Of a stretch of DNA of 44,459 bases, positions 1,543 to 37,331 are shown in pieces. The first letter of the stretch is position 1, and every line of letters starts with the position of its first letter. A program made the translations under genes and the position numbers. Below the pieces are notes generated by a model that saw nothing but the letters and a program-made list of their open reading frames with translations, was not told the origin of the DNA and searched no databases. The DNA is from a virus, in the IMG/VR virus record IMGVR_UViG_3300010300_000001; one strand, 5' to 3'.

Positions 1543-2945
1543 TGGTTGCCAAAGGCCAGTACCGAGCTCGAGGCGCGGCCGCAGACCTGTTCTTCTGCGA
1601 AGACCCCGAGGTGTTGATCGAGGGCCCGGCCGGCACCGGCAAGACTCGCGCGGTGCTAGAGAAGATCAACTGGCTATGTCAGGAGGTCAAAGGCGCGCGC
1701 GCGTTTATTTGCCGCGCCACCAGGGCGTCTATGACGGAATCGGTGCTGGTCGAATTCGAGGAATCGGTGCTGACCCCGGGCAAGGGTATTCGCCCTAGGG
1801 GCGGATCTGTCGAGCGCAGAACTGCATACGACTACCCGAACGGGTCACACATGGTGGTGTCTGGCCTGGATAACGCCGACCGGATCATGTCGTCGCAGTA
1901 CGACTTTGCGGCGGTGTTTGAGGCTACCGAGATTGCGGAAAGCGACTGGGACAAGATCCAGACGCGTATGCGTCACAACAGGTTCAGGTATCAGCAGTCC
2001 ATTGCCGACTGCAACCCTGCCTTCCGCTCGCACTGGCTCAACCGCAGGGCCAGCAGGATCAGCCGTGAGGGCATCCCCATGATGACCCGGCTTCTGTCGC
2101 GCCACGAAGACAACCCATCCGTCACGGCCGAGTACCTGCGCCGACTGGACAACCTGGCCGGCGCGCGATACGAGCGTCTGCGCCTGGGGCTTTGGGTCGA
2201 TGAGTCCGGCGTCGTGCTCCCCGAGTTCGACGAAAGAATCCACGTCGTTAGCCCGCAGCATTCCCTCAACCCGGACGGAACAACCGCAATTGCCTATTAT
2301 ATTGGCGCAATTGACTGGGGCTTTCGCAACCCAGGTTGCTTTCAGGTTTGGGGTGTTACTTGGAACGACGAAATGTATCGCGTAGCCGAGGTGTACTTTC
2401 GGGAAAAGAGCCTTGACTGGTGGAGCGCGGTCGTTTCAGACGCCCACGAACGGTACAATCTAAGAACCATTTACTGCGATCCAGCCCAGCCGGAGCACAT
2501 AGCTATGCTCAACCGACGACTCGGCCCGCAGGGCGGGCGCAACGTCAACGCAATCGCGGTCAAGGCCAACAACGACTGGCTGGCCGGGCGCGACCTCGTA
2601 GCCGAGCTCTTGAAGCCGACGGATGGGTCCAGCCCCAAGATGTATCTGGTCAACTCGGCTAGTCGCTTCCGAGGCGTAGACAAGACGCTACGCGAAGAGC
2701 ACCTGCCCGTGTGTTCAGAGGAAGAGTGGCCGGGTATCACGTGGGATGAGGCCAAGGACGACAAACCCATCAAGGAGCGGCCGATGGCGGGCGTCCCTGA
2801 CCACGCGTTCGACACTACGCGCTATGCAGCAATGGGTGTCTGGGGCCGTGGCCTGGTGGAGGCGCCGCAGGACATTCAGCTGCCCGAAAACAGCGTCGGG
2901 GCAATCCTCGACTGGACCCGCGATCTGGGAGACGACTGGCAATGA
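1542..2945 (+). CDS. terL: Terminase large subunit
   Basis: Walker A GPAGTGKT at nt 1620-1643. C-terminal nuclease-type ending ...PDHAFDTTRYAAMG. 467 aa, immediately upstream of the portal-sized ORF. Confidence 0.9.
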   Translation: MVAKGQYRARGAAADLFFCEDPEVLIEGPAGTGKTRAVLEKINWLCQEVKGARAFICRATRASMTESVLVEFEESVLTPGKGIRPRGGSVERRTAYDYPNGSHMVVSGLDNADRIMSSQYDFAAVFEATEIAESDWDKIQTRMRHNRFRYQQSIADCNPAFRSHWLNRRASRISREGIPMMTRLLSRHEDNPSVTAEYLRRLDNLAGARYERLRLGLWVDESGVVLPEFDERIHVVSPQHSLNPDGTTAIAYYIGAIDWGFRNPGCFQVWGVTWNDEMYRVAEVYFREKSLDWWSAVVSDAHERYNLRTIYCDPAQPEHIAMLNRRLGPQGGRNVNAIAVKANNDWLAGRDLVAELLKPTDGSSPKMYLVNSASRFRGVDKTLREEHLPVCSEEEWPGITWDEAKDDKPIKERPMAGVPDHAFDTTRYAAMGVWGRGLVEAPQDIQLPENSVGAILDWTRDLGDDWQ

Positions 2946-15700: not shown

Positions 15701-18700
15701 ATGGCGACAGTCCAAGAGCCTCAGGACTTTACTGCGTTTGCTGACCGCTACTGGCAGGTCAGGGGCAGTGGCGGCCCTATTGGTGATGAGCAACTTCGTC
15801 CGCTGCTGGACGAGTTTGGCTTGCCGTACTGGTCTGGCATGGAGGCGGCGCTAGACGAGGGCGTCGGCAGGACCAAAGACTTTCGGACTGTTGTTGAAGA
15901 ATCGGAGCTGGCTGATTACCTGCCGTTCTTCGCTGGGGCGGCTCAGGTTGACGAGCTTCTTCAGATCAGAAGCGCAGCGAATGCGGTAGCCGAGGGCACC
16001 GCTACGCAAGAGCAGGAAGATGTGGTTATCCGCTACATGGTGGATATGGCCACGCCTGGCACGTGGGGCGGCCAAGTTGCTTCGCTGCTGGTTGACATGC
16101 CTGCATTCATGGGTGAGTTTGCAGCTAGTGGCGGCGTTGCATCTTTGCTGAAAACGGGCGGCAAGAAGGTTGCGGGTAAGCTGCTTCGAGAGACCATTGA
16201 CCAAGCGGCGCAAAAGCAGGCGGCCGGTGGCGTGATGAAATCGCTGGCCAAGCGGGGCGTCAACGTCGGTACTCACTTTGGCGTTCAGATGGGGCTTGGT
16301 GGAGTCGGCGGGCAGCGCATCATGGCCAGCACGCTACAGCGCACGCTGGGCCAGGCGGGCATGGTTTTGGATGAGAACCAAGCTGGCGAGCTCGAGGTGC
16401 TGATGAGCAGCACTCTGCCGCAGATCGAGGAGTCGCTCGACATTGGTATCACCGACTACGCCATTGAGGTGGCGTCCGAGATGAGCGGCGGCGCTATTGG
16501 CAAGGTCGTGCCTATCGACAAGCTGACCGGCATGGTGCTGCGAGGCATCCAGGCGCGTGCATTTGCCAAGGGAGCTCAAAAGTACGGCGTGGACAAGGCC
16601 ATGAACTTCCTGGCCAAGTCTGGGTGGAACGGCCCAATGAACGAGGTCTTGGAGGAGGTAGCCGGCAACGCAATGCGTGCAGCTGCCCCGAACCTCGAAG
16701 AGACTGCCGATGACATCATCCCGTCGTGGGAAGAGTTCACGGCAATGTACGTCGGCTTTGCGGTTCCGGGTCTGGCCGGCGGTGCTCTTGGGTTAGGGAG
16801 TGACTCAATGACCAGCGGGCCCGGCAAGCTGCCTAAGGGCGCAGCCCGATTTGAAACCGCCGAAGAGGCTGAGCAGGCCGGCCAGCGCATGGGCCTTGTC
16901 GAGCCTGTCGCATCGGAGTCGGCCGATGGCTTTGGCCTGCGGCGATACGCAGACGGACCCCTGGTAAGCGAGCAGGAGGTAAGTGCGCGCGTTCCGGCCC
17001 GGGCCCCGGCCCCCGACGCTGACGTGGACGCTGACGCTGAGCCAGGAACTGTAGATGCCGAGGTTGTAGATACTAAGGCGCCGCCCGCGGAAGAGCTCTC
17101 GGAGGAGGACGAAGACTTCCTGCTACAGCCGGAATACGAAGATTCGGATGTTCTGTACCAGCAGCTTGATGCTGGCGCGGAGGGTGAGTATCGCCGGGAG
17201 CGCGCGGCCGTGGTCTTTGATGAAGCTGAGCGGTACGCATCGGCCTCGGGGGAGCGCGCATACGTTGTCACGGACCCAAGCAACAGGGCTCTAAACTACG
17301 CGAGTCGCCAGGAGGCAATCGACCTGGTGCAGTCTGGCCAGGGCAAAGTCCTGGCCGTGCTCGAGCCTAGCCGCGAAGCTGAGCCTGCGCGCACAATCCT
17401 TCGCGACGCCCAGCAGGTGTGGGGGGCTAACGCGACCATTGTTGAGCCGAATCTGGAGCGCGAAGACGTGCGCGCAGCGCAAGAGCTGGCTAAGCGCGCC
17501 GGCGTGCGGTTTGTGATGGTTGATCCCGGCGAGGGCGCTGAAGACGCTCCGCTGGGCGCCTCGGCTCGCGTTGGGACAATTATGGTGAACGCGCGCAACA
17601 AGCCGCCGGCCGACGAGATTGCCGCGCATGAGCTTGTGCATGAACTGCGCCGCAGCAACCCGGAGCTCTTTGACCAGCTTGTCGATGTCCTTCAGCGCAC
17701 CGCCGGGGAGCGCATCGAAGAGGCGCGCGGCAGCCGGGATATGTCGGACGAAGAAGCGATAGCTCGGTACGCGGAGCCGCTCGCCAAGCTGATGCGCCGA
17801 ATGGGGACGCCACAGGGCCGTAAGCTGCTAAGGGACATTGCCCTTGAGCAACCGAGGCTGTTTGACAAGATTATTGACACTGTCCGCCGCATCCTGGCCA
17901 AGATCGGCCTTGTGCAGTCTCCGGTTATGGAGCGCAAGCGGCTGCGCATGCAGGAGCAGCTGGCCGATCTGGGCGAGCGCGTCACGCAGGAAGATGTGCG
18001 CGCCGCGCGATTGCTGCACGACTCGCTGACCTTTATTGGCAAAGCGCGCCTAGCCGGTTTGCTGACGGGCGACGAGCAGGGCGAGGTGAAGCTGCGCGAG
18101 GCTTACCTGGAGGAAGATCCTGACCGCGCCTTACGCTATCGCGACGACGACATGCTGGGGCAGAGCTGGGCGGAAGACAAAGAGCGCAAGCTGATTCTTG
18201 CGGACGGCACCGAGATCCCGTTTCGCTACAGAGTCGTCAATGCCAGCGACCTGCTGCCTAGCCATGACGCACGCAGAGGGTTTAGGCAGAACCCGGGCGG
18301 TGATAAAAACGAGCGCACGTATCACATTGAGAGCCAGTCAAAGGCGTCGCGCAAGAACGTCAGGGATATTGCCAGCGACCCGCAGCCGGAACGCATCTTC
18401 AATACCGCGCCAGACCCCAACACCGGGCCGCCTATCGTGACCCTAGATGGGGTTGTGCTGGGCGGCAATGCGCGCACCATGGGCTTGCAGCTGCTGTACC
18501 ACAATGCGTGGGAAAAGCAGGAGAACGTGGACGCCGCTGAACGCGTGGCACAAGCGGCGGTTCAGTTTGCCGCACGCGAGATGGGCGAAGAGGCCGAAGC
18601 TGTGGCTATTGAGCTGGAGCAACCCGTCATTGTTAGAGAGCTCCAGATCGCCACCATCCCCGGCGCGCTGTCGCGCGAACTAAACAAGGATGCCGCGGCG

Positions 18701-21700
18701 CCGCGCACACCGTCTGTGGACGCCGTGTCTCGCGGCTCTAAGGTGTCGGAGCAGGCCGCGCAGATGATCGCCCAAACCATTGGCGAGGGCACTCTGGGCG
18801 ATGTCCTAAACAGTCGCTCCAAAACCGCGTCGATGCTTAGCGCGCTGGTCAAGTCCGGCGCCTTCGACGAGGCTGAAATTGAGTCACTCATGGAGGGCCA
18901 GAGTGGCCTGCTGACTAAGGCCGGCCGCGAGCTGGTTGAAAAAACCATCATTGGCTCGCTTGTCACGGACGTGCAACGTCTGTCGGCTTTGCCTGCAAGT
19001 GCGCGAGGCAAGATGATTCGGTCGCTGCCGTCGCTGATGCGCCTGTCGGCAAGCTGGCCGCAGTTCAAGCATCACCTGGCGGCCATGTTCGATGGGCTGG
19101 CCACGATGCGCGGGGCCGACACTAATCTGGCAACGGAGGTTGACCAGACTAGCCTAGAGGACGAGCCGTGGAAGCGCGACATGGTGGCCGTCGCGCTGCT
19201 AAGCGAATTCATGGGCCGGGGGCCCAAGTCCTGGAACGAATTTGCCAAGGACCTGGTGACGGCCGTTACCGAGGCCAACATGCAGCAGGGCGCCATGTTT
19301 GGCGAGCCTGTGGCGGCTGATCCGGTAGAGGCGCTGTTGAAGCTGGTTGGCGATACACCGATGGGGCGCCGGCTTGCGCAGGCCAGCAACTTTGACCCGA
19401 CCGTTCAAATGCAAGAGGCCGAGGCGGCCCCGGAGGCGGCCCCGGAGGCGGAGGCCGAGGTTGACGCGCCTGCCGCCGAAGAGCCTGCTGCCGAAGAGTC
19501 CGTTGCCGCCGAACTGCCGCAGGTGCCGGCCAGAAAGCGGCGCTACTCGCCTGCCACTGAGCAAATGGCCGACGCGCTCAGGCAGCTCGCGCTGGAGCCG
19601 GAGTTGGTTGCCGGCAGGTCGTTTGGCCGCCTTGAAGATGCAGACATTGCATTCCTGGCTCGCCAGGCGGCTGCGGCCGTGGCTGAAGAGTGGGGCACGT
19701 CTGAGTTTGTGGAGTTCGCTACAGAGCTTGCCACAAAGCATTCTCAGATCGACTTCAACACGGCCATAGCTTTTATCCATGGCGTTGACGCCCTGGCCCG
19801 CTCTGCGGGATCGCAACTGCCTGGCTTTGATGTAAGCGGCACCATTGAGGCCATGCTGAGCTCGGTGGCTGTGGGGCGCGAGCGCTCTGAGCTCGAGACC
19901 GCTGGCCTGGTGGGCAACTACGTCAGGACCACGCTGCAAGCGGAAATGGAGTCCCGTCTCGGGGGCGAGCAGGAAGCCGATGCCGAGGCCCGCGAAGCGC
20001 CGGACCTTGCTTGGTTTGATGCTTCGCGCAAGAGCCCAGCGTTCTCGCAGCTAGGCGAGCTTGCGGACGAGCAAGATGGCGTTCGCAAAGGCGACGTGGT
20101 GGTGGTGCTTGACGGCACCCGCATGCGCATTGATCGGGCAAGCACGGTCAACCGTGACCGGGACGTTATGCGCTACGATAGCGGCGAAGGCCGCATCGAA
20201 GGCACGGAAGGCTCGTTTAGCCCTGGGAGCAAGCGGCCTGTGCGCCGCAACATGCAGCAGCCCGTGCTAGTTATTCCCAAGCGCTTTGTGGACAACGACG
20301 CGTACCTTGCGCTGTCTACAGGCGACAAGCGGCCGGCTGTAGATACAAGCAGCCAGGAGGCGTACGAGCGCAGCGTGGACGACGCGATGAACTTCATTGC
20401 AAACAACTTGCTGCGCGAACCGTCCAAGGCTCACCGCAAGGCCGACCGGGAAACTCTACTCAATCTGCGCAACGAGCTCGCTGGCCAGCAGGCCGCAGCC
20501 CCTGAGGCGGCTAAGCCGGCGGCAGACGCAAGCTACGAGCAGATTGAGCGCGAGTACCTGCAAAGCATTCGTGATGCGCTGGGCGTCGATGAGCAGCAGG
20601 CGGCCGTGCTGTCTTACCTAATGGATTCAATGGGCCTCGACCGCAGCACCATTGACTTTATGCGAGGCAGCACGCCAGACCCCCGCTTGCTCAACCAGCG
20701 AGTGTGGCATGGCTCAAGCGCGGCGTTTAGCAGGTTCGACACCGGGTTTATTGGCACCGGCGAAGGCGAGCAAGCCTATGGGTGGGGCCTGTATTTTGCG
20801 TCGCGCAAATCGGTTGCGGAATGGTATCGCGTACAGATTGCGGGTCGCGGAAAGGTAGATCAGCCGCACCTGCTTTTGCAGCAGCGCACCAGGAGCGACG
20901 AGCCTGGCGCAGTTGTTTATAACTATGAAGAGCTTCGCTTCCTCGGCCAGCGCATTCAGGACGCGTGGCGGGAGTGGTTCAGAGCCGCCAGCCAGTCGGA
21001 GACGGGCCCCCCTAGCGCAATGGAGCAGATGGATTGGCTCAACCGCGCGTTGAAGTCAATGCTTGCCGATGCGGAGGCTGAGCTTGCGCGGCAGCGAGCC
21101 GGCGGCCCGAACACGTCGCCAGTGCTTTTGCGCGCAGCCGAGAGAATCGCTGGCAGAATGCGCGATGTCGTCAACGGCACTAATGACGTTGGGTTTGAGG
21201 TGACGCTGGCTGGTCATAGAGGGCAACTGTACGAGGTCGAGCTCCATCCGGCCGAGAGCCAGTATTTGCTCTGGGAGGCAAACGCCTCAGGCCGTTTCTA
21301 TCTCGGTGGTGGAAAACAGAGTCGCCGGGTGCAGACCGCGCTTCAGCCGATTGTCGAGCTTGTGTTTACAAGCCAGGGGCGTCGCGTGCCACGCTACCTT
21401 AGTGGAGAAGAGTTGTACAAGGAGCTGGTCTCCTACTTTGAGCAGAGGCCGCTGCCCAAAGGCCAGTCTGCGCAAATGGCAGCGTCGCTCAAGCTACTTG
21501 AATCGGGTGTGCGCGGCATCAAATACGTAGACGGGGTAAGCCGGAAGAAAGTGGGCCCGCTCCACTACAACTACGTAGTTTTCGACGCGGCAGACACGCG
21601 AATGACGCGTTTCTTCCAGCAGGGCAACGAAGTGCAGGGGCAGGTTGAGTTGGCCCAGGATGGCCGCGCAATCATCACTGGCTTCGAATCTGCCAACTTC

Positions 21701-24700
21701 AGTACCGGCGTCCATGAGATTGCGCACGTAGCTCGCCGCCGCCTGGTCAACCGCGAGGTGCCAGCCAGCGAGCGCGAAGGCATTACGTCGCAGGACATCC
21801 TAGAGGCCGAAACGTGGTGCGGCGTCGAGGACGGCAACTGGACTGAAGAGGCCGAGGAAAGGTTTGCCCGCGGCTTCGAGAAGTACCTGATTGACGGCAA
21901 GGCGCCGAACGCGCAGCTGCACGCGATGTTCCGCGTCATTGCCCAGTGGATGCGTCGGCTGTACGAGCATGTGCTGACCCGCACGGCCGGCACGCCGTAC
22001 GAGGTCAAGCTGACCCCCGAAATGACTCGCGTGTATGACGCTCTGGTGACGCGGGGCCAGTACACCGGCCCAGAACAGGAGGGCGAGGTTCATGGCCCTG
22101 TCAAGGAGGTCGATGGAGTCAGGCCAGTTCGGTGGGTTGGAGGCAACGTGGATGTGGCGTACAACCGCCGCTACGACATTGTTCACCGCACGTGGAACAA
22201 GGACCCGCAGAAACGTAACACGATCATCTACGTGTTCGACGTTGACCCGTCGCGCAACTACTCGCCGGCCGACGTGTATCGAATCGCCTACACCAGCGGC
22301 ATGATCCCCAAGGGCGGTGGCAGCACAGGCGCCGAGGAGATTCAGACCCCGCACGGATTTTATGTCCGCCGGCAAAAAACCAACCGTGGGCTCAAGAACG
22401 ATTGGGTGCTGAATCCTGAGTTCCAAGAGGAAGATGCGGCGACTGAGGCTGCCGCGCCGGACGCCGAGGGCCTGGCCGGAAGCGAGGCAGACCCCCAGCC
22501 TGATGGCGGGCAGGATCTGAGTCGGTGGTTTGAGCGGCGAAGAAAGCAGCAGATTGATTTTCTGCGGCCGTTCATCGACGCCGTGGTTGAAGACTTCATC
22601 GGCACCTTGCCCGAAAAGTCTCGCGCCAGTGCCCGACAAGCGCTTAGCGGCACAACTTTCAGCAGCGACTTGGCCGTGGGTGATCGCGTTGTGGCTGCTG
22701 CGGCCTTTCGTGGCTACCAGTACGTAGACACGTACCCGGATGGGCCCGCCGATGCCCCGGCGCTTTACAGGGACGGGATGGTTGTTGCCGACCGCAACAA
22801 CTACACCGCGACGGGCATGAAGCTATTCGCCTACATTGCCAGGCAGCGCACCCGCGAGCTCGAGGAGGCCATTGCGGGCGCCCCTAGCTTCTGGCGCGAA
22901 GGGGCAATCGAGGTCGCGCAGCCGGGGTACAGGGTGGTTGGTCTAGTTGACCAAAAGACGCATGAGCTCCAGCAAGACGGAAGCTGGCTGGAGATTGACC
23001 CAGACGCTGAGTCCTACACGGGCCTAGAGCTTCCTGCGCGCCCTGAGGGCCTGCCTGACTGGCACCCGCCGCTAAACGAGCACGACGCGTTTGGCGATAT
23101 GACCCGGCCCGCTGAGCCTGAAATGATCGGGCCGGTGATGCCGGAGGATGAACGCCGGGCTCTGGAAGCTGCGCAAATCCTGATTGAGCGCGAGCGCCGC
23201 AAGCGCCGTAAGCTGCCGCCGGGCGAGCAGTCAAACCTCTTCGGCCCTGGCGAACCCGTTGACCTCGACCCGCCTAGCGATTCTGGCGGCGATCGTGGCT
23301 TGCAGCCGCCGGCTTCGTTTGAGGGCGGGCCCCGGCCCGGACCGGAGGACGTGGAGGGCGTGCGCCGCTCGTTTGCTTTGGGCGCGCAGCCCAGGGTCAA
23401 GCGCGCAAACGTCAGTGGCGACCCGAACGTGCGCAACTACGTGCGCGCCAGCGACGTGCAGATGGGCCGCAAAGGCGAGTACATGGCCAGCATCAAGCAG
23501 GCCGAAAAAGACGCGACTCGCATGCTCGAGGAGATGGGGGAAGAAGCCTTTGTTGAAAACTTCCTGACCAGGGCCCGCGAGGGAGTGCTGCACGATCAGG
23601 TGGAGTTCCTTGCAGCCCGACGCATTAGCGCCAACCTGATCAGAGATGCCCTGGGCATGGGGGGCACAGACAGGCATGCGCGTGCCATTGAGTTCATGTG
23701 GGCGTACCGTGCCGCGAGGGGCCAGGTGGCTCGTTCGCTTGGCATGGTGCGCGACGTGTTCCCTCGTACCGCACGCGAGCAGCTGGCCGATGTCTTGGCC
23801 ATGCCTAGCCAGCGAGTGCGCCGCCGGTTCCTGAACCTGGAAAAGAAGCGCCGCGAGCTGCGAGAGAAGGAGCGCGCACAGGCCAGCGAAGCCAGTCGCA
23901 AGCGCCTGCGAAAGGAGCTCGAGCGCATTGAGCGCCAGATCGACGCAGAGCTGAAGCGCGAGTCTGAGCGCATGCAGAAAGCGCTGGAGAAGCTGCAAGA
24001 AGATGGGTTGAACCCCGAGACCGTGATTGAATCCGACCTTATGGATCCCAACACGCGCGGCCGTATCGCCAAGGCTATTGCTGAGGCCAGGTCGAACAAG
24101 TGGGATTGGTTCTTGGCATACCAGTACAATGCAATGCTGTCGTTTGCCGGAACGCACGCGCGCAACATTGCCGGCAACACGCTAAACACTCTCCAAGAGC
24201 AGTTTGTGCAGCGTGGGGTTGAGGCGGGCATTGCCCGCGCCCTGCGGCTGTTTGCTCCTGGGAACTTTGAGGCGGCGCCGAAGTTTGGCGAGTTCAAGGT
24301 AATGGCCCAGATGCTGCCGGAGGCGTTTATGCAAGGCGCCCTGAACGGGTGGCTGGGCTACAAAAACAACGTCAGCGCCACGGCCCTGTACTTCCAAGCC
24401 ATGGGCATCGAGGTGCAGGACATGAGCCGTATCGAGCAGGACATTGCGCGGCAGGTGGGCAGCGGAAAGCTGCTGTACCTTGACTACCTGGGCACCCGCC
24501 TGCTGCAAGGCATGGATGACTGGGCCAAGACGTTCGTGGCTATCATCGAGATGCACGCCCGCTCGTATCGCGAGGCAGTCAACATGGGGCTCAAGAATCC
24601 CAAGGACATTGAGAAGCAAATGCGCATCTTCATGCTCGACGTGCAGCACCCGCTGCATCAAGAGGCGTGGACTGCGGCGCTCAAAACTGCGTTCCAGTTG

Positions 24701-26032
24701 CCGCCGGGCGAGTTCACTACCGGCTTGCTGAACCTGCGCAACAAGGCTGACTCAGCGTGGGATGTCCCGATGGGCACTCTCATGTTCCCGTTCGTGAACA
24801 CGCCGACCCAAATCTTCCAAGCGGGCCTGCGCAAAATCCCGCCGTCCAAGCTGATTCAGATGGCTGTGCGAGCCGTGCGCACCGTCAAGGCTGCCCGAGC
24901 CGATGAAGGCGCCGAAGATGTCGCCAAGGGGCGCACCGTGTACACGGGCGCGGAAGGCCAGCGGCAGTTGGTTGAGGATCTGGCCGATTTGGTGATTGGT
25001 GTCGGCGTGTTCTGGACCGTCATTGCCCTACTTGCTGGAGACGACGACGACCCGCGCCCGAAGATTACTGGTTCGCTGAAGCCGTGGGGGTCAGAGCGGG
25101 AGCTCCAGTACCGCGCTGCGCCGGCAATGTCGGTGCGCTTTGGGGACAGTTACTACTCGTATGCCGGGCTCGAGCCCCTTGCCACGTATGCGGCGCCGGT
25201 CGTTGACGCAGCAGAGCGCTGGCTGGGTGCTGTAAATGGCGGAACTAAGGAGCAGATCCTTGCTGCCAACACTAACGTGCTCAACTCCATCGTCGGTCTG
25301 GTTCGAGACAAGACCTACCTCCAGGGCTTTGGCGAGCTGGTGGACTTGGTGCAGTCTGGAGGCAAGTCACAATCGCTTGCAGATTTCATGTCCGACACGT
25401 TCTTCACGCGAATGGTGCCCAACGTCATTCGCGGAACGGCCAGAGAGTCGGACGAGTACCTGCGCCTAAGCCGCACCGCAGAAAAGTCGCTGCTGGGCCG
25501 CACGCTCAACGTAGACAAGCTGTTGCCTGTGCCTCCGCGAGTTGCGCGCTACCTGGGCATTGACCCTGCGCCGCCCAAGCGGGATATCTGGGGCCGCCCC
25601 ATTCCTCGAGGCGTGCAGATTGACTGGTCGTTTGGCGGGCTTGCCGGCCACCTGATGAAGGAGGCCGTGGGCCCCAAGAAGATGAACCCGGTGATGAAGG
25701 CCGACCTGGCCATCATGGCCTGGAACAGTATGGTGGAGCGCGGAGAGGCGATTGATCCCCGGACAGGGGACGTTGCAGAGCCGCTAAAGTTTGCTGGTAA
25801 GCGCGTCGGGCAGAACTGGTCGTCCGAAGAGGTTGACTTCGTAATGCGCGAAGGCGGCGGGCGGGCTCAGCGCGCTATCCAGGGGCTTGTTATTCGAGAC
25901 GTATCCAATCCCACGTGGTACGAAATGCAGGCGATTCGGAAGATACTGGATAAATCGTATGACGCTGCCATGAAGCAGGTGCGCGCGCAGCGCCGTGTGC
26001 GCAAGGCCCAGGAGCTCTCAACCACCAGGTAG
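15701..26032 (+). CDS. Giant multidomain (polyvalent-type) protein, 3443 aa, probably virion-borne
   Basis: Single uninterrupted ORF of 10,332 nt with a GGAAGGA Shine-Dalgarno. Motifs: HELVH (nt 17627-17641); ParB-like PPIVTLDGVVLGGNARTMGL (nt about 18431-18487); WHGS...GWGLYFAS...LHYNYVVFD (nt 20705-21595); HEIAH (nt 21713-21727) followed by EERFARGFEKYLIDGKAP; basic coiled coil (nt about 23828-24010); transmembrane-like LVIGVGVFWTVIALLAG (nt about 24983-25039). Confidence 0.85.
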   Translation: MATVQEPQDFTAFADRYWQVRGSGGPIGDEQLRPLLDEFGLPYWSGMEAALDEGVGRTKDFRTVVEESELADYLPFFAGAAQVDELLQIRSAANAVAEGTATQEQEDVVIRYMVDMATPGTWGGQVASLLVDMPAFMGEFAASGGVASLLKTGGKKVAGKLLRETIDQAAQKQAAGGVMKSLAKRGVNVGTHFGVQMGLGGVGGQRIMASTLQRTLGQAGMVLDENQAGELEVLMSSTLPQIEESLDIGITDYAIEVASEMSGGAIGKVVPIDKLTGMVLRGIQARAFAKGAQKYGVDKAMNFLAKSGWNGPMNEVLEEVAGNAMRAAAPNLEETADDIIPSWEEFTAMYVGFAVPGLAGGALGLGSDSMTSGPGKLPKGAARFETAEEAEQAGQRMGLVEPVASESADGFGLRRYADGPLVSEQEVSARVPARAPAPDADVDADAEPGTVDAEVVDTKAPPAEELSEEDEDFLLQPEYEDSDVLYQQLDAGAEGEYRRERAAVVFDEAERYASASGERAYVVTDPSNRALNYASRQEAIDLVQSGQGKVLAVLEPSREAEPARTILRDAQQVWGANATIVEPNLEREDVRAAQELAKRAGVRFVMVDPGEGAEDAPLGASARVGTIMVNARNKPPADEIAAHELVHELRRSNPELFDQLVDVLQRTAGERIEEARGSRDMSDEEAIARYAEPLAKLMRRMGTPQGRKLLRDIALEQPRLFDKIIDTVRRILAKIGLVQSPVMERKRLRMQEQLADLGERVTQEDVRAARLLHDSLTFIGKARLAGLLTGDEQGEVKLREAYLEEDPDRALRYRDDDMLGQSWAEDKERKLILADGTEIPFRYRVVNASDLLPSHDARRGFRQNPGGDKNERTYHIESQSKASRKNVRDIASDPQPERIFNTAPDPNTGPPIVTLDGVVLGGNARTMGLQLLYHNAWEKQENVDAAERVAQAAVQFAAREMGEEAEAVAIELEQPVIVRELQIATIPGALSRELNKDAAAPRTPSVDAVSRGSKVSEQAAQMIAQTIGEGTLGDVLNSRSKTASMLSALVKSGAFDEAEIESLMEGQSGLLTKAGRELVEKTIIGSLVTDVQRLSALPASARGKMIRSLPSLMRLSASWPQFKHHLAAMFDGLATMRGADTNLATEVDQTSLEDEPWKRDMVAVALLSEFMGRGPKSWNEFAKDLVTAVTEANMQQGAMFGEPVAADPVEALLKLVGDTPMGRRLAQASNFDPTVQMQEAEAAPEAAPEAEAEVDAPAAEEPAAEESVAAELPQVPARKRRYSPATEQMADALRQLALEPELVAGRSFGRLEDADIAFLARQAAAAVAEEWGTSEFVEFATELATKHSQIDFNTAIAFIHGVDALARSAGSQLPGFDVSGTIEAMLSSVAVGRERSELETAGLVGNYVRTTLQAEMESRLGGEQEADAEAREAPDLAWFDASRKSPAFSQLGELADEQDGVRKGDVVVVLDGTRMRIDRASTVNRDRDVMRYDSGEGRIEGTEGSFSPGSKRPVRRNMQQPVLVIPKRFVDNDAYLALSTGDKRPAVDTSSQEAYERSVDDAMNFIANNLLREPSKAHRKADRETLLNLRNELAGQQAAAPEAAKPAADASYEQIEREYLQSIRDALGVDEQQAAVLSYLMDSMGLDRSTIDFMRGSTPDPRLLNQRVWHGSSAAFSRFDTGFIGTGEGEQAYGWGLYFASRKSVAEWYRVQIAGRGKVDQPHLLLQQRTRSDEPGAVVYNYEELRFLGQRIQDAWREWFRAASQSETGPPSAMEQMDWLNRALKSMLADAEAELARQRAGGPNTSPVLLRAAERIAGRMRDVVNGTNDVGFEVTLAGHRGQLYEVELHPAESQYLLWEANASGRFYLGGGKQSRRVQTALQPIVELVFTSQGRRVPRYLSGEELYKELVSYFEQRPLPKGQSAQMAASLKLLESGVRGIKYVDGVSRKKVGPLHYNYVVFDAADTRMTRFFQQGNEVQGQVELAQDGRAIITGFESANFSTGVHEIAHVARRRLVNREVPASEREGITSQDILEAETWCGVEDGNWTEEAEERFARGFEKYLIDGKAPNAQLHAMFRVIAQWMRRLYEHVLTRTAGTPYEVKLTPEMTRVYDALVTRGQYTGPEQEGEVHGPVKEVDGVRPVRWVGGNVDVAYNRRYDIVHRTWNKDPQKRNTIIYVFDVDPSRNYSPADVYRIAYTSGMIPKGGGSTGAEEIQTPHGFYVRRQKTNRGLKNDWVLNPEFQEEDAATEAAAPDAEGLAGSEADPQPDGGQDLSRWFERRRKQQIDFLRPFIDAVVEDFIGTLPEKSRASARQALSGTTFSSDLAVGDRVVAAAAFRGYQYVDTYPDGPADAPALYRDGMVVADRNNYTATGMKLFAYIARQRTRELEEAIAGAPSFWREGAIEVAQPGYRVVGLVDQKTHELQQDGSWLEIDPDAESYTGLELPARPEGLPDWHPPLNEHDAFGDMTRPAEPEMIGPVMPEDERRALEAAQILIERERRKRRKLPPGEQSNLFGPGEPVDLDPPSDSGGDRGLQPPASFEGGPRPGPEDVEGVRRSFALGAQPRVKRANVSGDPNVRNYVRASDVQMGRKGEYMASIKQAEKDATRMLEEMGEEAFVENFLTRAREGVLHDQVEFLAARRISANLIRDALGMGGTDRHARAIEFMWAYRAARGQVARSLGMVRDVFPRTAREQLADVLAMPSQRVRRRFLNLEKKRRELREKERAQASEASRKRLRKELERIERQIDAELKRESERMQKALEKLQEDGLNPETVIESDLMDPNTRGRIAKAIAEARSNKWDWFLAYQYNAMLSFAGTHARNIAGNTLNTLQEQFVQRGVEAGIARALRLFAPGNFEAAPKFGEFKVMAQMLPEAFMQGALNGWLGYKNNVSATALYFQAMGIEVQDMSRIEQDIARQVGSGKLLYLDYLGTRLLQGMDDWAKTFVAIIEMHARSYREAVNMGLKNPKDIEKQMRIFMLDVQHPLHQEAWTAALKTAFQLPPGEFTTGLLNLRNKADSAWDVPMGTLMFPFVNTPTQIFQAGLRKIPPSKLIQMAVRAVRTVKAARADEGAEDVAKGRTVYTGAEGQRQLVEDLADLVIGVGVFWTVIALLAGDDDDPRPKITGSLKPWGSERELQYRAAPAMSVRFGDSYYSYAGLEPLATYAAPVVDAAERWLGAVNGGTKEQILAANTNVLNSIVGLVRDKTYLQGFGELVDLVQSGGKSQSLADFMSDTFFTRMVPNVIRGTARESDEYLRLSRTAEKSLLGRTLNVDKLLPVPPRVARYLGIDPAPPKRDIWGRPIPRGVQIDWSFGGLAGHLMKEAVGPKKMNPVMKADLAIMAWNSMVERGEAIDPRTGDVAEPLKFAGKRVGQNWSSEEVDFVMREGGGRAQRAIQGLVIRDVSNPTWYEMQAIRKILDKSYDAAMKQVRAQRRVRKAQELSTTR

Positions 26033-35700: not shown

Positions 35701-35715
35701 GTTTCGTCATCCGTT

Positions 35716-35770
35716 GGGGTTTCGGCCTTGCCTGGGCCTCGTCAGGGGAGCGCAGCACGCTCTCGACCCC
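35716..35770 (-). ncRNA. Hammerhead ribozyme motif, type III topology (copy A)
   Basis: Minus-strand RNA: GGGGUC / GAGAGCG-UGCUG-CGCUCCC (stem I, one A-C mismatch) / CUGACGA / GGCC-CAGGCAA-GGCC (stem II) / GAA / ACCCC (stem III, pairing with GGGGU). Every invariant core position is present, and the cleavage triplet is GUC. Confidence 0.8.
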
Positions 35771-35778
35771 TTGCGGGG

Positions 35779-36030
35779 TCAGGTGTCCGGGTACTTGTTC
35801 AGGCGGACGGCCTCCGCCGGCCTCGTTACCGTTTTGGCCAGGCGCGGCGCGTCCACGCTGGCGAGCTCACTATCCACGAACGGCACCAAGTGTATATCCG
35901 CCGCCGCGGCCTGTAGCGCCTCTGCCAGCGCGCCCGCTCCGGCCACGTTCAGGTAGAACGTGGGCAGGTTTGGCACGCTCACAGCTACCGCATCCCGGAA
36001 CCGGTGCACGCGCCAGGCCCTAAAACCCAT
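35779..36030 (-). CDS. Hypothetical early protein (83 aa)
   Basis: The ATG at 36030 overlaps the upstream stop by 11 nt. GC3-rich frame. Its UGA stop lies inside the 5' arm of the GCAA hairpin of hammerhead copy A. The longer track ORF 35779..36243 overlaps the neighbouring gene and is unlikely. Confidence 0.5.
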   Translation of the reverse strand: MGFRAWRVHRFRDAVAVSVPNLPTFYLNVAGAGALAEALQAAAADIHLVPFVDSELASVDAPRLAKTVTRPAEAVRLNKYPDT

Positions 36031-36397
36031 GGCTGATAAACCCCCGCCAGCCGTTGGGCGCGTTCTCCAGCCAATCCGCGAGGGCATCATACCCAGCGAG
36101 CCAAGCTTCAATCCGGCCGTGGATGGTGTAATCGGCCACGGCCTCCCATGCGTCCACACCTGGCGGCAGAATGATCCGGCACCATTCATGTTGGGCGCCG
36201 GCTTTCGTTCGGTAGAACCAGCCGAGCTCCGCGCAGCCGACAAACGATATCCGGTCGAGGGCCTTTGCGGCGCTCTGCATCTTTTCGGGCGCGTCCCCGC
36301 CGTCGTCTACCTCGATAAACCCATCGGGGCCGCTGCTCTTGAACATATACTCAACTAGCGCCTGAACGTGCCAGGGAATGTCCTTGTGGCTACGCAT
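36020..36397 (-). CDS. Hypothetical early protein (125 aa)
   Basis: The ATG at 36397 overlaps the upstream stop by 8 nt. The track start at 36481 would run through the neighbouring gene. Confidence 0.55.
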   Translation of the reverse strand: MRSHKDIPWHVQALVEYMFKSSGPDGFIEVDDGGDAPEKMQSAAKALDRISFVGCAELGWFYRTKAGAQHEWCRIILPPGVDAWEAVADYTIHGRIEAWLAGYDALADWLENAPNGWRGFISHGF

Positions 36398-36806
36398 TGG
36401 ACGCGGCCTCCGGCTGCTCGGCGTCTGCCAGGGCCTCGGCCTCGGCAAACTTGGCCGCGGCCACCTCCTGCAATCGTTCAAAATATGCGACCTGAAGGCC
36501 GGCCAGCTCGTATGCGGCGAGCTCGAGCGCCTGCCCTAGCTCCCCGGCCAGGTCGGCAATCATGTCGTGAAACAGGGCCTGGCGCTCGTAGTGGCTGCTG
36601 TTGAGCTCTTCGCAGTCGGCGTCCGGCTCGACGTTGTGCACGGTGCCCAGCTCGTCCACGTATCCGCCCTCGCCGATGCGGTGCACCTGCCAGCTATCGA
36701 TAGACGTGAAGGCGCGGCCCCCAACGGTCCACGCGTTGCGGAGCGCTCCCGATATGGTTCTGGCGCGTCCCCAGGTGTGGGGCGCGATAACGATGTAATG
36801 GTGCAT
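36390..36806 (-). CDS. Hypothetical early protein (138 aa)
   Basis: ATG at 36806 (the track uses a TTG one codon upstream). GAGGA lies about 9 nt upstream. First gene after hammerhead copy B. Confidence 0.6.
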   Translation of the reverse strand: MHHYIVIAPHTWGRARTISGALRNAWTVGGRAFTSIDSWQVHRIGEGGYVDELGTVHNVEPDADCEELNSSHYERQALFHDMIADLAGELGQALELAAYELAGLQVAYFERLQEVAAAKFAEAEALADAEQPEAASNA

Positions 36807-36843
36807 CAAGGGTCATCCTCTCGGCCTGGTAGTGTTCTGACGT

Positions 36844-36895
36844 GGCGTTTCGGCCGTCTCGGCCTCGTCAGCGGGGCAGACCAGCCCCGGACGCC
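36844..36895 (-). ncRNA. Hammerhead ribozyme motif, type III topology (copy B)
   Basis: Minus-strand RNA: GGCGUC / CGGGGC-UGGUCU-GCCCCG (stem I) / CUGACGA / GGCCG-AGA-CGGCC (stem II) / GAA / ACGCC (stem III, pairing with GGCGU). It closely parallels the classic CUGAUGA-GGCC-GAAA-GGCC-GAA-AC minimal hammerhead. Confidence 0.85.
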
Positions 36896-36903
36896 TTGCG
36901 GCG

Positions 36904-37164
36904 TCACGGCTCCGCCTCCGCCTCCGCCGCCCGGTCCAGCCGCTCCTCTCGAGCTCGTATGTCTTCGGCAATCTGGCGAGCTAGGCCGCGGGCCAGCTTA
37001 TCGGCGAGCTCGCGCAGCCTGGCAGCAGCCTCGGGGGTGCAGTCGGGAGAGCTGGCGACCTCGCTTACGTGGCGGAGCTCGCACGGCCGGCAGAGCTGAC
37101 TCGGGCTATCGTAGTCGGCCAAGCTGGCGCCGCAGCTGCCGCAAACACTTTCGGGGTTGTTCAT
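36904..37164 (-). CDS. Small zinc-ribbon protein (86 aa)
   Basis: The ATG at 37164 forms an ATGA overlap with the upstream stop. CGSC...CRPC motif and an acidic helical tail. Its UGA stop lies inside the 5' arm of the GCAA hairpin of hammerhead copy B. Confidence 0.6.
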   Translation of the reverse strand: MNNPESVCGSCGASLADYDSPSQLCRPCELRHVSEVASSPDCTPEAAARLRELADKLARGLARQIAEDIRAREERLDRAAEAEAEP

Positions 37165-37331
37165 CGGTTGATTCGGACGGCCTGGCCGCCCTCGGTGTCG
37201 GTGTCGTCGGGGAATACGTCGTACTGGAGAGCGGCCGCCCGGCGGTCTAGCCATTCCTCATAGGCTTCCCAGAGCTTTGCGCACTCCGGGCAAGGGAAGG
37301 GGCCTTCCTCGAGATTGCAGCGGCAGCTCAT
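37161..37331 (-). CDS. Small Cys-rich protein (56 aa), below the ORF-track cutoff
   Basis: Hand translation gives MSCRCNLEEGPFPCPECAKLWEAYEEWLDRRAAALQYDVFPDDTDTEGGQAVRINR. GGAGG lies 4 nt upstream of the start, and there are ATGA overlaps at both ends. Confidence 0.55.
   Translation of the reverse strand: MSCRCNLEEGPFPCPECAKLWEAYEEWLDRRAAALQYDVFPDDTDTEGGQAVRINR

Follow-up and report, generated by a model that had tools for sequence, protein, structure and literature searches.

Hammerhead ribozymes are known from phages and prophages, where clusters of them flank short gene blocks of varying identity, and their proposed role is the cutting of long phage transcripts into messenger RNAs (mRNAs) of operon or gene length (Perreault et al. 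2011, PMC3088659). Regulation of the phage hammerheads was only speculated on in that paper, which uses neither of the terms 'stop codon' and 'terminator' and mentions no upstream hairpins or competing helices. Here we analyse a 44,459-nucleotide stretch of viral DNA (IMG/VR record IMGVR_UViG_3300010300_000001; this whole stretch is referred to as the window), a 44-kb double-stranded DNA phage genome in which two hammerhead ribozymes are embedded between protein-coding genes. As in the clusters of Perreault et al., nearby hammerheads flank a few phage genes, but the window adds to each of them a stop-codon hairpin that competes with stem III of the ribozyme.

Competing helices have been described in the hammerheads of satellite RNAs (sBYDV and satRPV), where, as relayed in two reviews, they lower self-cleavage (Miller and Silver 1991; Song et al. 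1999, via PMC6155905 and PMC6765202). The likeness lies in a conserved helix that is made from ribozyme strands and competes with a ribozyme stem, two exclusive folds both being conserved. The satellite RNAs, however, are circular replicons whose alternative fold serves replication or ligation, with no open reading frame (ORF), stop codon or ribosome in the accounts given there, whereas the competitor in the window lies in an mRNA and starts in a stop codon. The window ribozymes sit between phage protein genes and are not part of a small circular RNA processed from multimers.

Attenuation in bacterial leaders such as those of trp and erm lets the location of a ribosome decide between two mutually exclusive helices. 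The window resembles these attenuators in having a translated ORF that overlaps one arm of two such helices. The output of an attenuator is transcription termination or exposure of a ribosome-binding site, whereas the output proposed here is activation of a self-cleaving ribozyme, and the attenuator ribosome stalls within a leader peptide, whereas ours would stand at the stop codon of a full-length gene. At the RNase III sites of phage T7, a polycistronic transcript is cut between cistrons and a hairpin is left at the 3' end of the upstream mRNA. There a host protein enzyme cuts a double-stranded site, whereas in the window cleavage would be by the RNA itself, and the cleavage strand doubles as one arm of the hairpin.

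Reviews of 2017 and 2019 treat the role and regulation of bacterial and phage hammerheads as an open question (PMC6155905, PMC6765202), and our search of the literature for translation- or stop-codon-linked hammerhead control returned nothing relevant. The hammerheads themselves are of a known kind, and the recurrent, stop-codon-based hairpin that hides the cut site is new. The initial annotation, made from the sequence of the window, had likewise placed its hammerheads among known phage and prophage elements and knew of no description of the gating layout.

Two hammerheads with a locking hairpin

Two type III hammerheads, both complete, lie on the minus strand of the window, 1.1 kb apart and on either side of a block of three genes, X2 to X4; with the upstream arm included, copy B spans 36905..36844 and copy A 35780..35716. 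Each copy contains a perfect hairpin of 6 base pairs (bp) with a 4-nucleotide loop, GACSCC-GCAA-GGSGUC, the 3' arm of which is the cleavage-site strand. That strand, GGSGUC, has two mutually exclusive partners, the upstream GACSCC to form the hairpin or the distal ACSCC to form stem III. The elements of the two copies are as follows.

36905..36900, minus strand: copy B upstream arm, GACGCC; begins with the stop codon's GA (G36905, A36904) and pairs with 36895..36890 in the minimum-energy fold
36899..36896, minus strand: copy B loop, GCAA, read from the sequence
36895..36890, minus strand: copy B cleavage-site strand, GGCGUC; predicted cleavage 3' of C36890 (GUC placed by Rfam alignment)
36889..36872, minus strand: copy B stem I hairpin, from the hammerhead fold without the arm
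36871..36865, minus strand: copy B core, CUGACGA, from the Rfam alignment and core pattern
36864..36852, minus strand: copy B stem II, from the hammerhead fold without the arm
36851..36848, minus strand: copy B GAAA, from the Rfam alignment and core pattern
36848..36844, minus strand: copy B 3' strand of stem III, ACGCC, read from the sequence
35780..35775, minus strand: copy A upstream arm, GACCCC; begins with the stop codon's GA (G35780, A35779)
35774..35771, minus strand: copy A loop, GCAA, read from the sequence
35770..35765, minus strand: copy A cleavage-site strand, GGGGUC; predicted cleavage 3' of C35765 (Rfam alignment)
35764..35746, minus strand: copy A stem I, from the hammerhead fold without the arm
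Starting at 35745, minus strand: copy A core, from the Rfam alignment and core pattern
35723..35720, minus strand: copy A GAAA, from the Rfam alignment and core pattern
35720..35716, minus strand: copy A 3' strand of stem III, ACCCC, read from the sequence

Local Rfam scans matched both copies over the full length of the Hammerhead_3 model (RF00008), copy B at 36897..36842 with 38.9 bits (E = 1.5e-6) and copy A at 35772..35714 with 30.1 bits (E = 4.7e-4). The model's gathering score, the Rfam curated cut-off, is 48.5 bits. Neither copy reaches it, and a scan of the window at that threshold gave no match; related hammerheads from contig L091, described below, score 44.2 and 43.3 bits. CUGACGA, GAAA and GUC fall in register with the model in both copies, and every core nucleotide and all three stems are present. 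In the minimum-energy fold of the RNA without its arm, stems I and II are closed by loops and stem III (5 bp) is open. Chance would give 0.04 occurrences of the core pattern CTGANGAG...CGAAAC in the window, which has two. As judged by model match, core and stems, the two copies are complete type III hammerheads at cistron boundaries of a leftward phage operon, and they are predicted to cleave themselves.

A whole-window Rfam scan reported by E-value listed copy A and omitted copy B (36842..36897), the copy with the better local score. The omission is an effect of filtering, to be kept in mind in searches for short ribozymes.

Competition between the hairpin and stem III

The initial annotation had proposed two mutually exclusive helices, and folding with and without the arm bears this out in both copies. 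With the upstream arm present the minimum-energy fold contains the hairpin, and an RNA that begins at the loop folds as a textbook hammerhead. In minimal constructs the hairpin state has a predicted energy of -32.7 versus -27.9 kcal/mol in copy B (hairpin favoured by 4.8) and -27.2 versus -21.5 kcal/mol in copy A (favoured by 5.7), and with 8 nucleotides of extra flank the preference is 6.9 and 7.2 kcal/mol, respectively; these energies are predictions that leave out the tertiary contacts of the hammerhead. The equilibrium probability of stem III in the minimal constructs is about 1e-4 to 2e-4 for both copies, and the best refolding path from hairpin to stem III crosses a barrier of about 14 kcal/mol. 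With the hairpin favoured by 4.8 to 7.2 kcal/mol, stem III this rare and the barrier this high, the intact ribozyme would need help to open. The GCAA loop, described at the outset as a GNRA tetraloop, is present in both window copies but is not conserved, having changed to GCCA in copy B of the closest relative (L181), so a GNRA loop is not required.

Two further complementarities were seen near the locks. In copy B the sequence CGUCAG (36837..36842, minus strand), directly 3' of stem III, is complementary to CUGACG of the core (36866..36871) and pairs with it in the predicted OFF state, forming a second helix that would hide the catalytic core; it is absent from copy A. In contig L343 (about 2600..2640, reverse-complement coordinates) an upstream GUGGAG can pair with CUCCGC, which spans the arm and loop of the locking hairpin, and there, where the predicted fold is the active hammerhead, this pairing may be a third competing helix.

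Recurrence and covariation in other contigs

The two window copies differ at a single position that is compensated in all three strands (GACGCC/GGCGUC/ACGCC in copy B, GACCCC/GGGGUC/ACCCC in copy A), exactly as the initial annotation reported. The window by itself offers just this one covarying position, and the weight of the evidence lies in other contigs. A relative whose X5 protein is 80% identical (L181-L186) has the same gene order, both ribozymes and both hairpins, each starting in a TGA. In L181, RecT and RusA are encoded nearby and a gene ends at the same TGA as X1; the relative is too close for a test of covariation.

A hammerhead collection free of any upstream constraint was assembled from IMG/VR and metagenome scans keyed on the core and stem II, and filtering for paired stems gave 162 unique type III hammerheads (L001-L307). 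The layout U-GAC-NNN-N4-NNN-GUC, with a TGA at -16 from the cut site, recurs in five further contigs, namely L091 (two copies), L230, L313, L334 and L343. The unconstrained collection supplied L091, both copies of which read cugUGACACC-UCCG-GGUGUC ... GAAACACCC, and L230, with one copy reading UGACGGG-CCCU-CCCGUC ... GAAACGGGAG; no protein homology was found between the window and L091 or L230, nor in any of the four of the five contigs that were tested for it. A further IMG/VR scan that required only TGAC at -16 and GUC yielded five unique true hammerheads (L091, L313, L334, L343 and L324), all of which except L324 have the perfect 6-bp arm and 4-nucleotide loop.

Over ten sequences with this layout both the hairpin and stem III are 100% paired, three pairs in each helix have changed on both sides, and the covariation score was reached by no shuffle. 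All 60 of the 60 hairpin pair cells hold standard pairs, in a membership partly chosen for paired arms, which makes the alignment figures too favourable. Arm sequences differ and loop sequences diverge among the members, and the loop is always 4 nucleotides long. Further three-strand states beyond those of the window are GACACC, GACGGG, GACGGC and GACCCU, and the members that were not selected for TGAC or paired arms (window, L181, L091 and L230) already contain four sequence states. Both helices covary across the contigs, with at least four states in addition to the window's own, which carries into other genomes the three-strand compensation seen between copies A and B.

A scan of genome contigs for the GACNCC layout gave three matches, all of them chance (arms unpaired, no upstream ORF), and no example from a named host or prophage. 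The locus of a distant X5 homologue (L187) has no hammerhead, so the ribozymes are not tied to the X5 family.

The stop codon in the upstream arm

In both window copies the arm opens with the GA of the UGA that ends the upstream gene: the TGA at 36906..36904 is the real stop of gene X1 and that at 35781..35779 the real stop of X4. The arrangement recurs elsewhere, the arm likewise starting with the GA of an in-frame UGA that closes a long ORF in L181 (both hairpins), L091, L230, L334 and L343. In L230, L334, L343 and both copies of L091, the ORF ended by the arm's TGA is 139 to 232 codons long.

For contrast, IMG/VR was also scanned for the pattern with A, C or G ahead of GAC, and 24 unique true hammerheads were recovered. 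A perfect 6-bp hairpin with a 4-nucleotide loop is found in 5 of the 6 unique true IMG/VR hammerheads with TGAC at -16 and in 1 of these 24 (Fisher p = 2.4e-4), a contrast that becomes roughly 4/5 versus 1/6 when collapsed by lineage, the non-T set being mostly one family. The lone non-T hairpin, in L354, has a TAG that ends 2 nucleotides ahead of the arm. Judged by these sequence comparisons, the association between stop codon and hairpin is not due to chance.

Copy B has one more stop codon of note. Readthrough of its UGA would lead, 12 codons on (36869..36906, minus strand), to the UGA of the CUGACGA core as the next in-frame stop. The same core stop serves the type I hammerheads of L091 as their normal stop.

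Abutting hairpins as the usual design

The common design among phage type III hammerheads consists of a stop codon, a short gap, a GC-rich tetraloop hairpin and then stem III. In about 85 of the 162 collected hammerheads the 3' end of the hairpin is no more than 3 nucleotides away from the stem III strand or reaches 1-2 nucleotides into it (for example L200 at 2214, L213 at 2282 and L094 at 7408, in reverse-complement coordinates), and coverage of the whole strand, as in the window, forms a minor second mode (about 16/162). Local-hairpin measures were used for these counts in place of a sequestration index based on folding 45 upstream nucleotides, which was too noisy owing to long-range pairing in GC-rich coding sequence. 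A sequestering hairpin as a general trait of phage type III hammerheads was ruled out, as the enrichment of terminal hairpins of at least 6 bp is weak (18 among the 162 versus 9.2 under a permutation null) and the abutting class is dominant. The abutting architecture, with its stop 5-8 nucleotides ahead, is not mentioned in PMC3088659, PMC6155905 or PMC6765202.

The two classes differ in where the stop codon falls. It overlaps the 5' arm in 8/13 members of the sequestering class and lies 2 nucleotides upstream in another 3/13, against an overlap in 3/92 of the abutting class, where it mostly stands 3-9 nucleotides (mode 5-8) before the hairpin. The difference in overlap fits a sequestering class built to be melted by a terminating ribosome and an abutting class built to escape it. 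Measured from the cut site, stop codons cluster at -28..-35 and spike at -16 (13/112), and almost none is closer than -13; the spike and this near-absence suggest a minimum spacing between stop codon and cut site. In L041, L045, L166 and L263 the stop at -16 lies in or at the loop of an abutting hairpin.

A model for opening by the terminating ribosome

The anatomy, predicted energetics, recurrence and covariation of the locked hammerheads are observed features. As a tentative model for them, somewhat likelier to fail than to hold, we propose a two-state hammerhead switch at cistron boundaries that would be opened by the terminating ribosome. In the OFF state the local hairpin GACSCC/GGSGUC would form first and be the more stable; in the ON state GGSGUC would pair with the distal ACSCC and close stem III. 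With the UGA in the A site (first base of the P site as +1), the arm would occupy +5..+10 and the loop +11..+14, both inside the mRNA channel of the ribosome, and the cleavage strand at +15..+20 would lie just outside the terminating ribosome, free for stem III and the cut. Ribosome toeprints fall at +15 to +17. The ribosomal helicase reportedly acts near +11, in work attributed to Takyar, Hickerson and Noller in 2005, and UGAC is said to be the slowest termination context reported in Escherichia coli, an observation credited to Poole, Brown and Tate in 1995.

Removal of the arm would mimic a parked ribosome, the hammerhead then being the predicted minimum-energy fold. Abutting hairpins would start at about +12..+15 and escape unwinding. 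After the cut, the 5' product would re-form the hairpin as a blunt, structured 3' end that caps the upstream RNA and precludes religation. We hold with rather more reserve the wider proposal of a natural class of hammerheads locked by a UGA-based hairpin and activated by the terminating ribosome, such that the boundary would be cut only after upstream translation; in such a class the fixed -16 spacing (6-bp arm plus 4-nucleotide loop) would act as a ruler for the mRNA channel. From the gating interpretation of the initial annotation, the exclusive helices, a now wider three-strand covariation and a non-chance link to the stop codon all stand; that the RNA cleaves itself, that a ribosome opens the lock and what becomes of the products are steps that we infer.

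Alternative explanations

Several points weigh against a switch opened by the ribosome. In L313 the ORF ends 6 nucleotides before the arm's TGA, which is the second stop in that frame. The -16 spacing also occurs in six non-sequestering hammerheads (L041, L045, L166, L263, L026 and L114), and the excess of terminal hairpins over the null is about twofold. The lock is not uniformly strong, the minimum-energy fold of L230 and L343 being the hammerhead already. L313, L334 and L343 were retrieved by a pattern requiring TGAC and then picked for paired arms, and the pair counts lean to structure. Genome compaction alone could put a stop codon in the arm, and ribozyme cleavage and its dependence on the ribosome are predictions from sequence and folding.

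Compaction is one half of an explanation that we consider unlikely but worth serious attention, in which the hairpin was selected for its role in the 5' product and the stop overlaps the arm as a result of minimised intergenic space. A blunt 3' hairpin with a 2',3'-cyclic phosphate would guard against 3' exonucleases and religation; the window hairpin would be a compact form of the usual abutting one, inhibition before cleavage a tolerated side effect, and -16 the shortest spacing that fills the mRNA channel of a ribosome terminating on RNA already cut. The abundance of abutting hairpins shows that a role without sequestration exists, and a hairpin that has to form after cleavage would be expected to covary in its arm just as much. 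The scarcity of stops closer than -13, the six non-sequestering -16 cases and the still favoured hammerhead of L230 and L343 also sit well with such a product cap. It has more difficulty with the window hairpin itself, which beats stem III by 5-7 kcal/mol behind a barrier of about 14, so that an unassisted ribozyme would hardly cut during infection. The abutting design caps without that cost, the roughly 15 nucleotides saved are a weak selective force, and arm-overlapping stops are far commoner in the sequestering than in the abutting class. We think it improbable that the lock is a largely neutral relic, a leftover type I stem III hairpin with at most mild attenuation, the type III ribozyme having arisen when the 3' portion of one type I unit was joined to the 5' portion of the following unit. 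On this view inheritance, or copy correction between ribozymes of the same genome, would account for the three-strand match, and selection for switching would not. Type I phage hammerheads do often have a stem III of ACGCC-GCAA-GGCGU or ACCCC-GCAA-GGGGU, the same as the window hairpins (L024, L042, L007, L040), and L091 carries a type I stem III ACACCC-UYCG-GGGUGU and a type III lock GACACC-UCCG-GGUGUC on one contig. The order of a tandem type I junction matches as well (hairpin, cut site, stem I 3' strand, short loop, stem I 5' strand, core, stem II, GAAA, 5' half of stem III). Because the lock has the sequence of a type I stem III hairpin, part of the agreement among the three strands could be due to shared origin or copy correction. 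A neutral history is harder to reconcile with arms that stay fully paired (60/60 cells) around diverging loops of fixed length, which argues for purifying selection on the helix; an inhibitory relic should vanish if cleavage matters and cores should decay if it does not, yet all cores are intact, and the tie to an in-frame UGA is left unexplained.

It is very improbable that the window copies are non-functional, that is, chance or decayed hammerhead-like sequences beside ordinary intergenic stem-loops. Their scores under the Rfam gathering threshold and the omission of copy B from the whole-window scan would suit such a reading, the activity of both copies being a prediction. It is countered by the full-length model match with all core nucleotides and three paired stems in both copies, by two occurrences of a core pattern expected 0.04 times, by the retention of both copies in the 80%-identical relative and by the recovery of dozens of homologous phage hammerheads. 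The locus is a roughly 80-nucleotide RNA whose predicted OFF state hangs on six bases overlapping a stop codon, and its natural variants can serve as controls. Should a terminating ribosome prove to be the opener, the locus would hold the first natural ribozyme controlled by translation of an adjacent gene and would offer a ready-made part for synthetic operon design; should it not, comparison with the much commoner abutting hairpins would remain informative about how phages fashion the ends of mRNAs that ribozymes process.

Genes around the ribozymes

The order on the minus strand is X1, copy B, X2, X3, X4, copy A, X5, and the genes are as follows.

37254..36904, minus strand: X1, 116 amino acids, no family match; from the ORF list, with TGA stop at 36906..36904, upstream of copy B
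36806..36390, minus strand: X2, 138 amino acids, first gene of the block; GAGAGGA upstream of its ATG, same gene order in L181
36397..36020 (start approximate), minus strand: X3, about 125 amino acids; its ATG overlaps the X2 stop, and the L181 equivalent is called at 124 amino acids
36030..35779, minus strand: X4, 83 amino acids; TGA stop at 35781..35779, with an 83-amino-acid gene at the same place in L181
35700..35032, minus strand: X5, 222 amino acids; ATG 15 nucleotides past copy A, homologues found, including the 80%-identical relative with the same layout

Pfam and PHROG scans of eight neighbouring proteins gave no family, the surrounding 4-kb region had no match in GenBank phage DNA, and an IMG/VR scan seeded with the X5 protein gave no match. 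Between the genes of the window operon no sigma-70-like promoter was found, and terminator-like sites are weak, exceeding the shuffle expectation by a factor of about two at most. Among the products of the window are a terminase large subunit and a 3443-amino-acid polyvalent protein. The ORF of the latter (15701..26032, plus strand) has the ddrB-ParB, LPD14 and ART-PolyVal domains of a phage polyvalent protein.

Type I hammerheads near the locked copies

The locking hairpin was also considered as stem III of a type I hammerhead and ruled out, as GAA would be required 5' of the arm, where the window has GUG or CUG. True type I hammerheads do occur on L091, where two of them lie at about 2829..2780 and 1757..1710 (minus strand), with the upstream ORF ending at the UGA inside a CUGAUGA core. 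The sequence of their stem III hairpin is also that of the lock in the two type III copies on that contig. Each type I copy is followed by a promoter-like site, TTGACA-N17-TATGCT or the same with TATACT.

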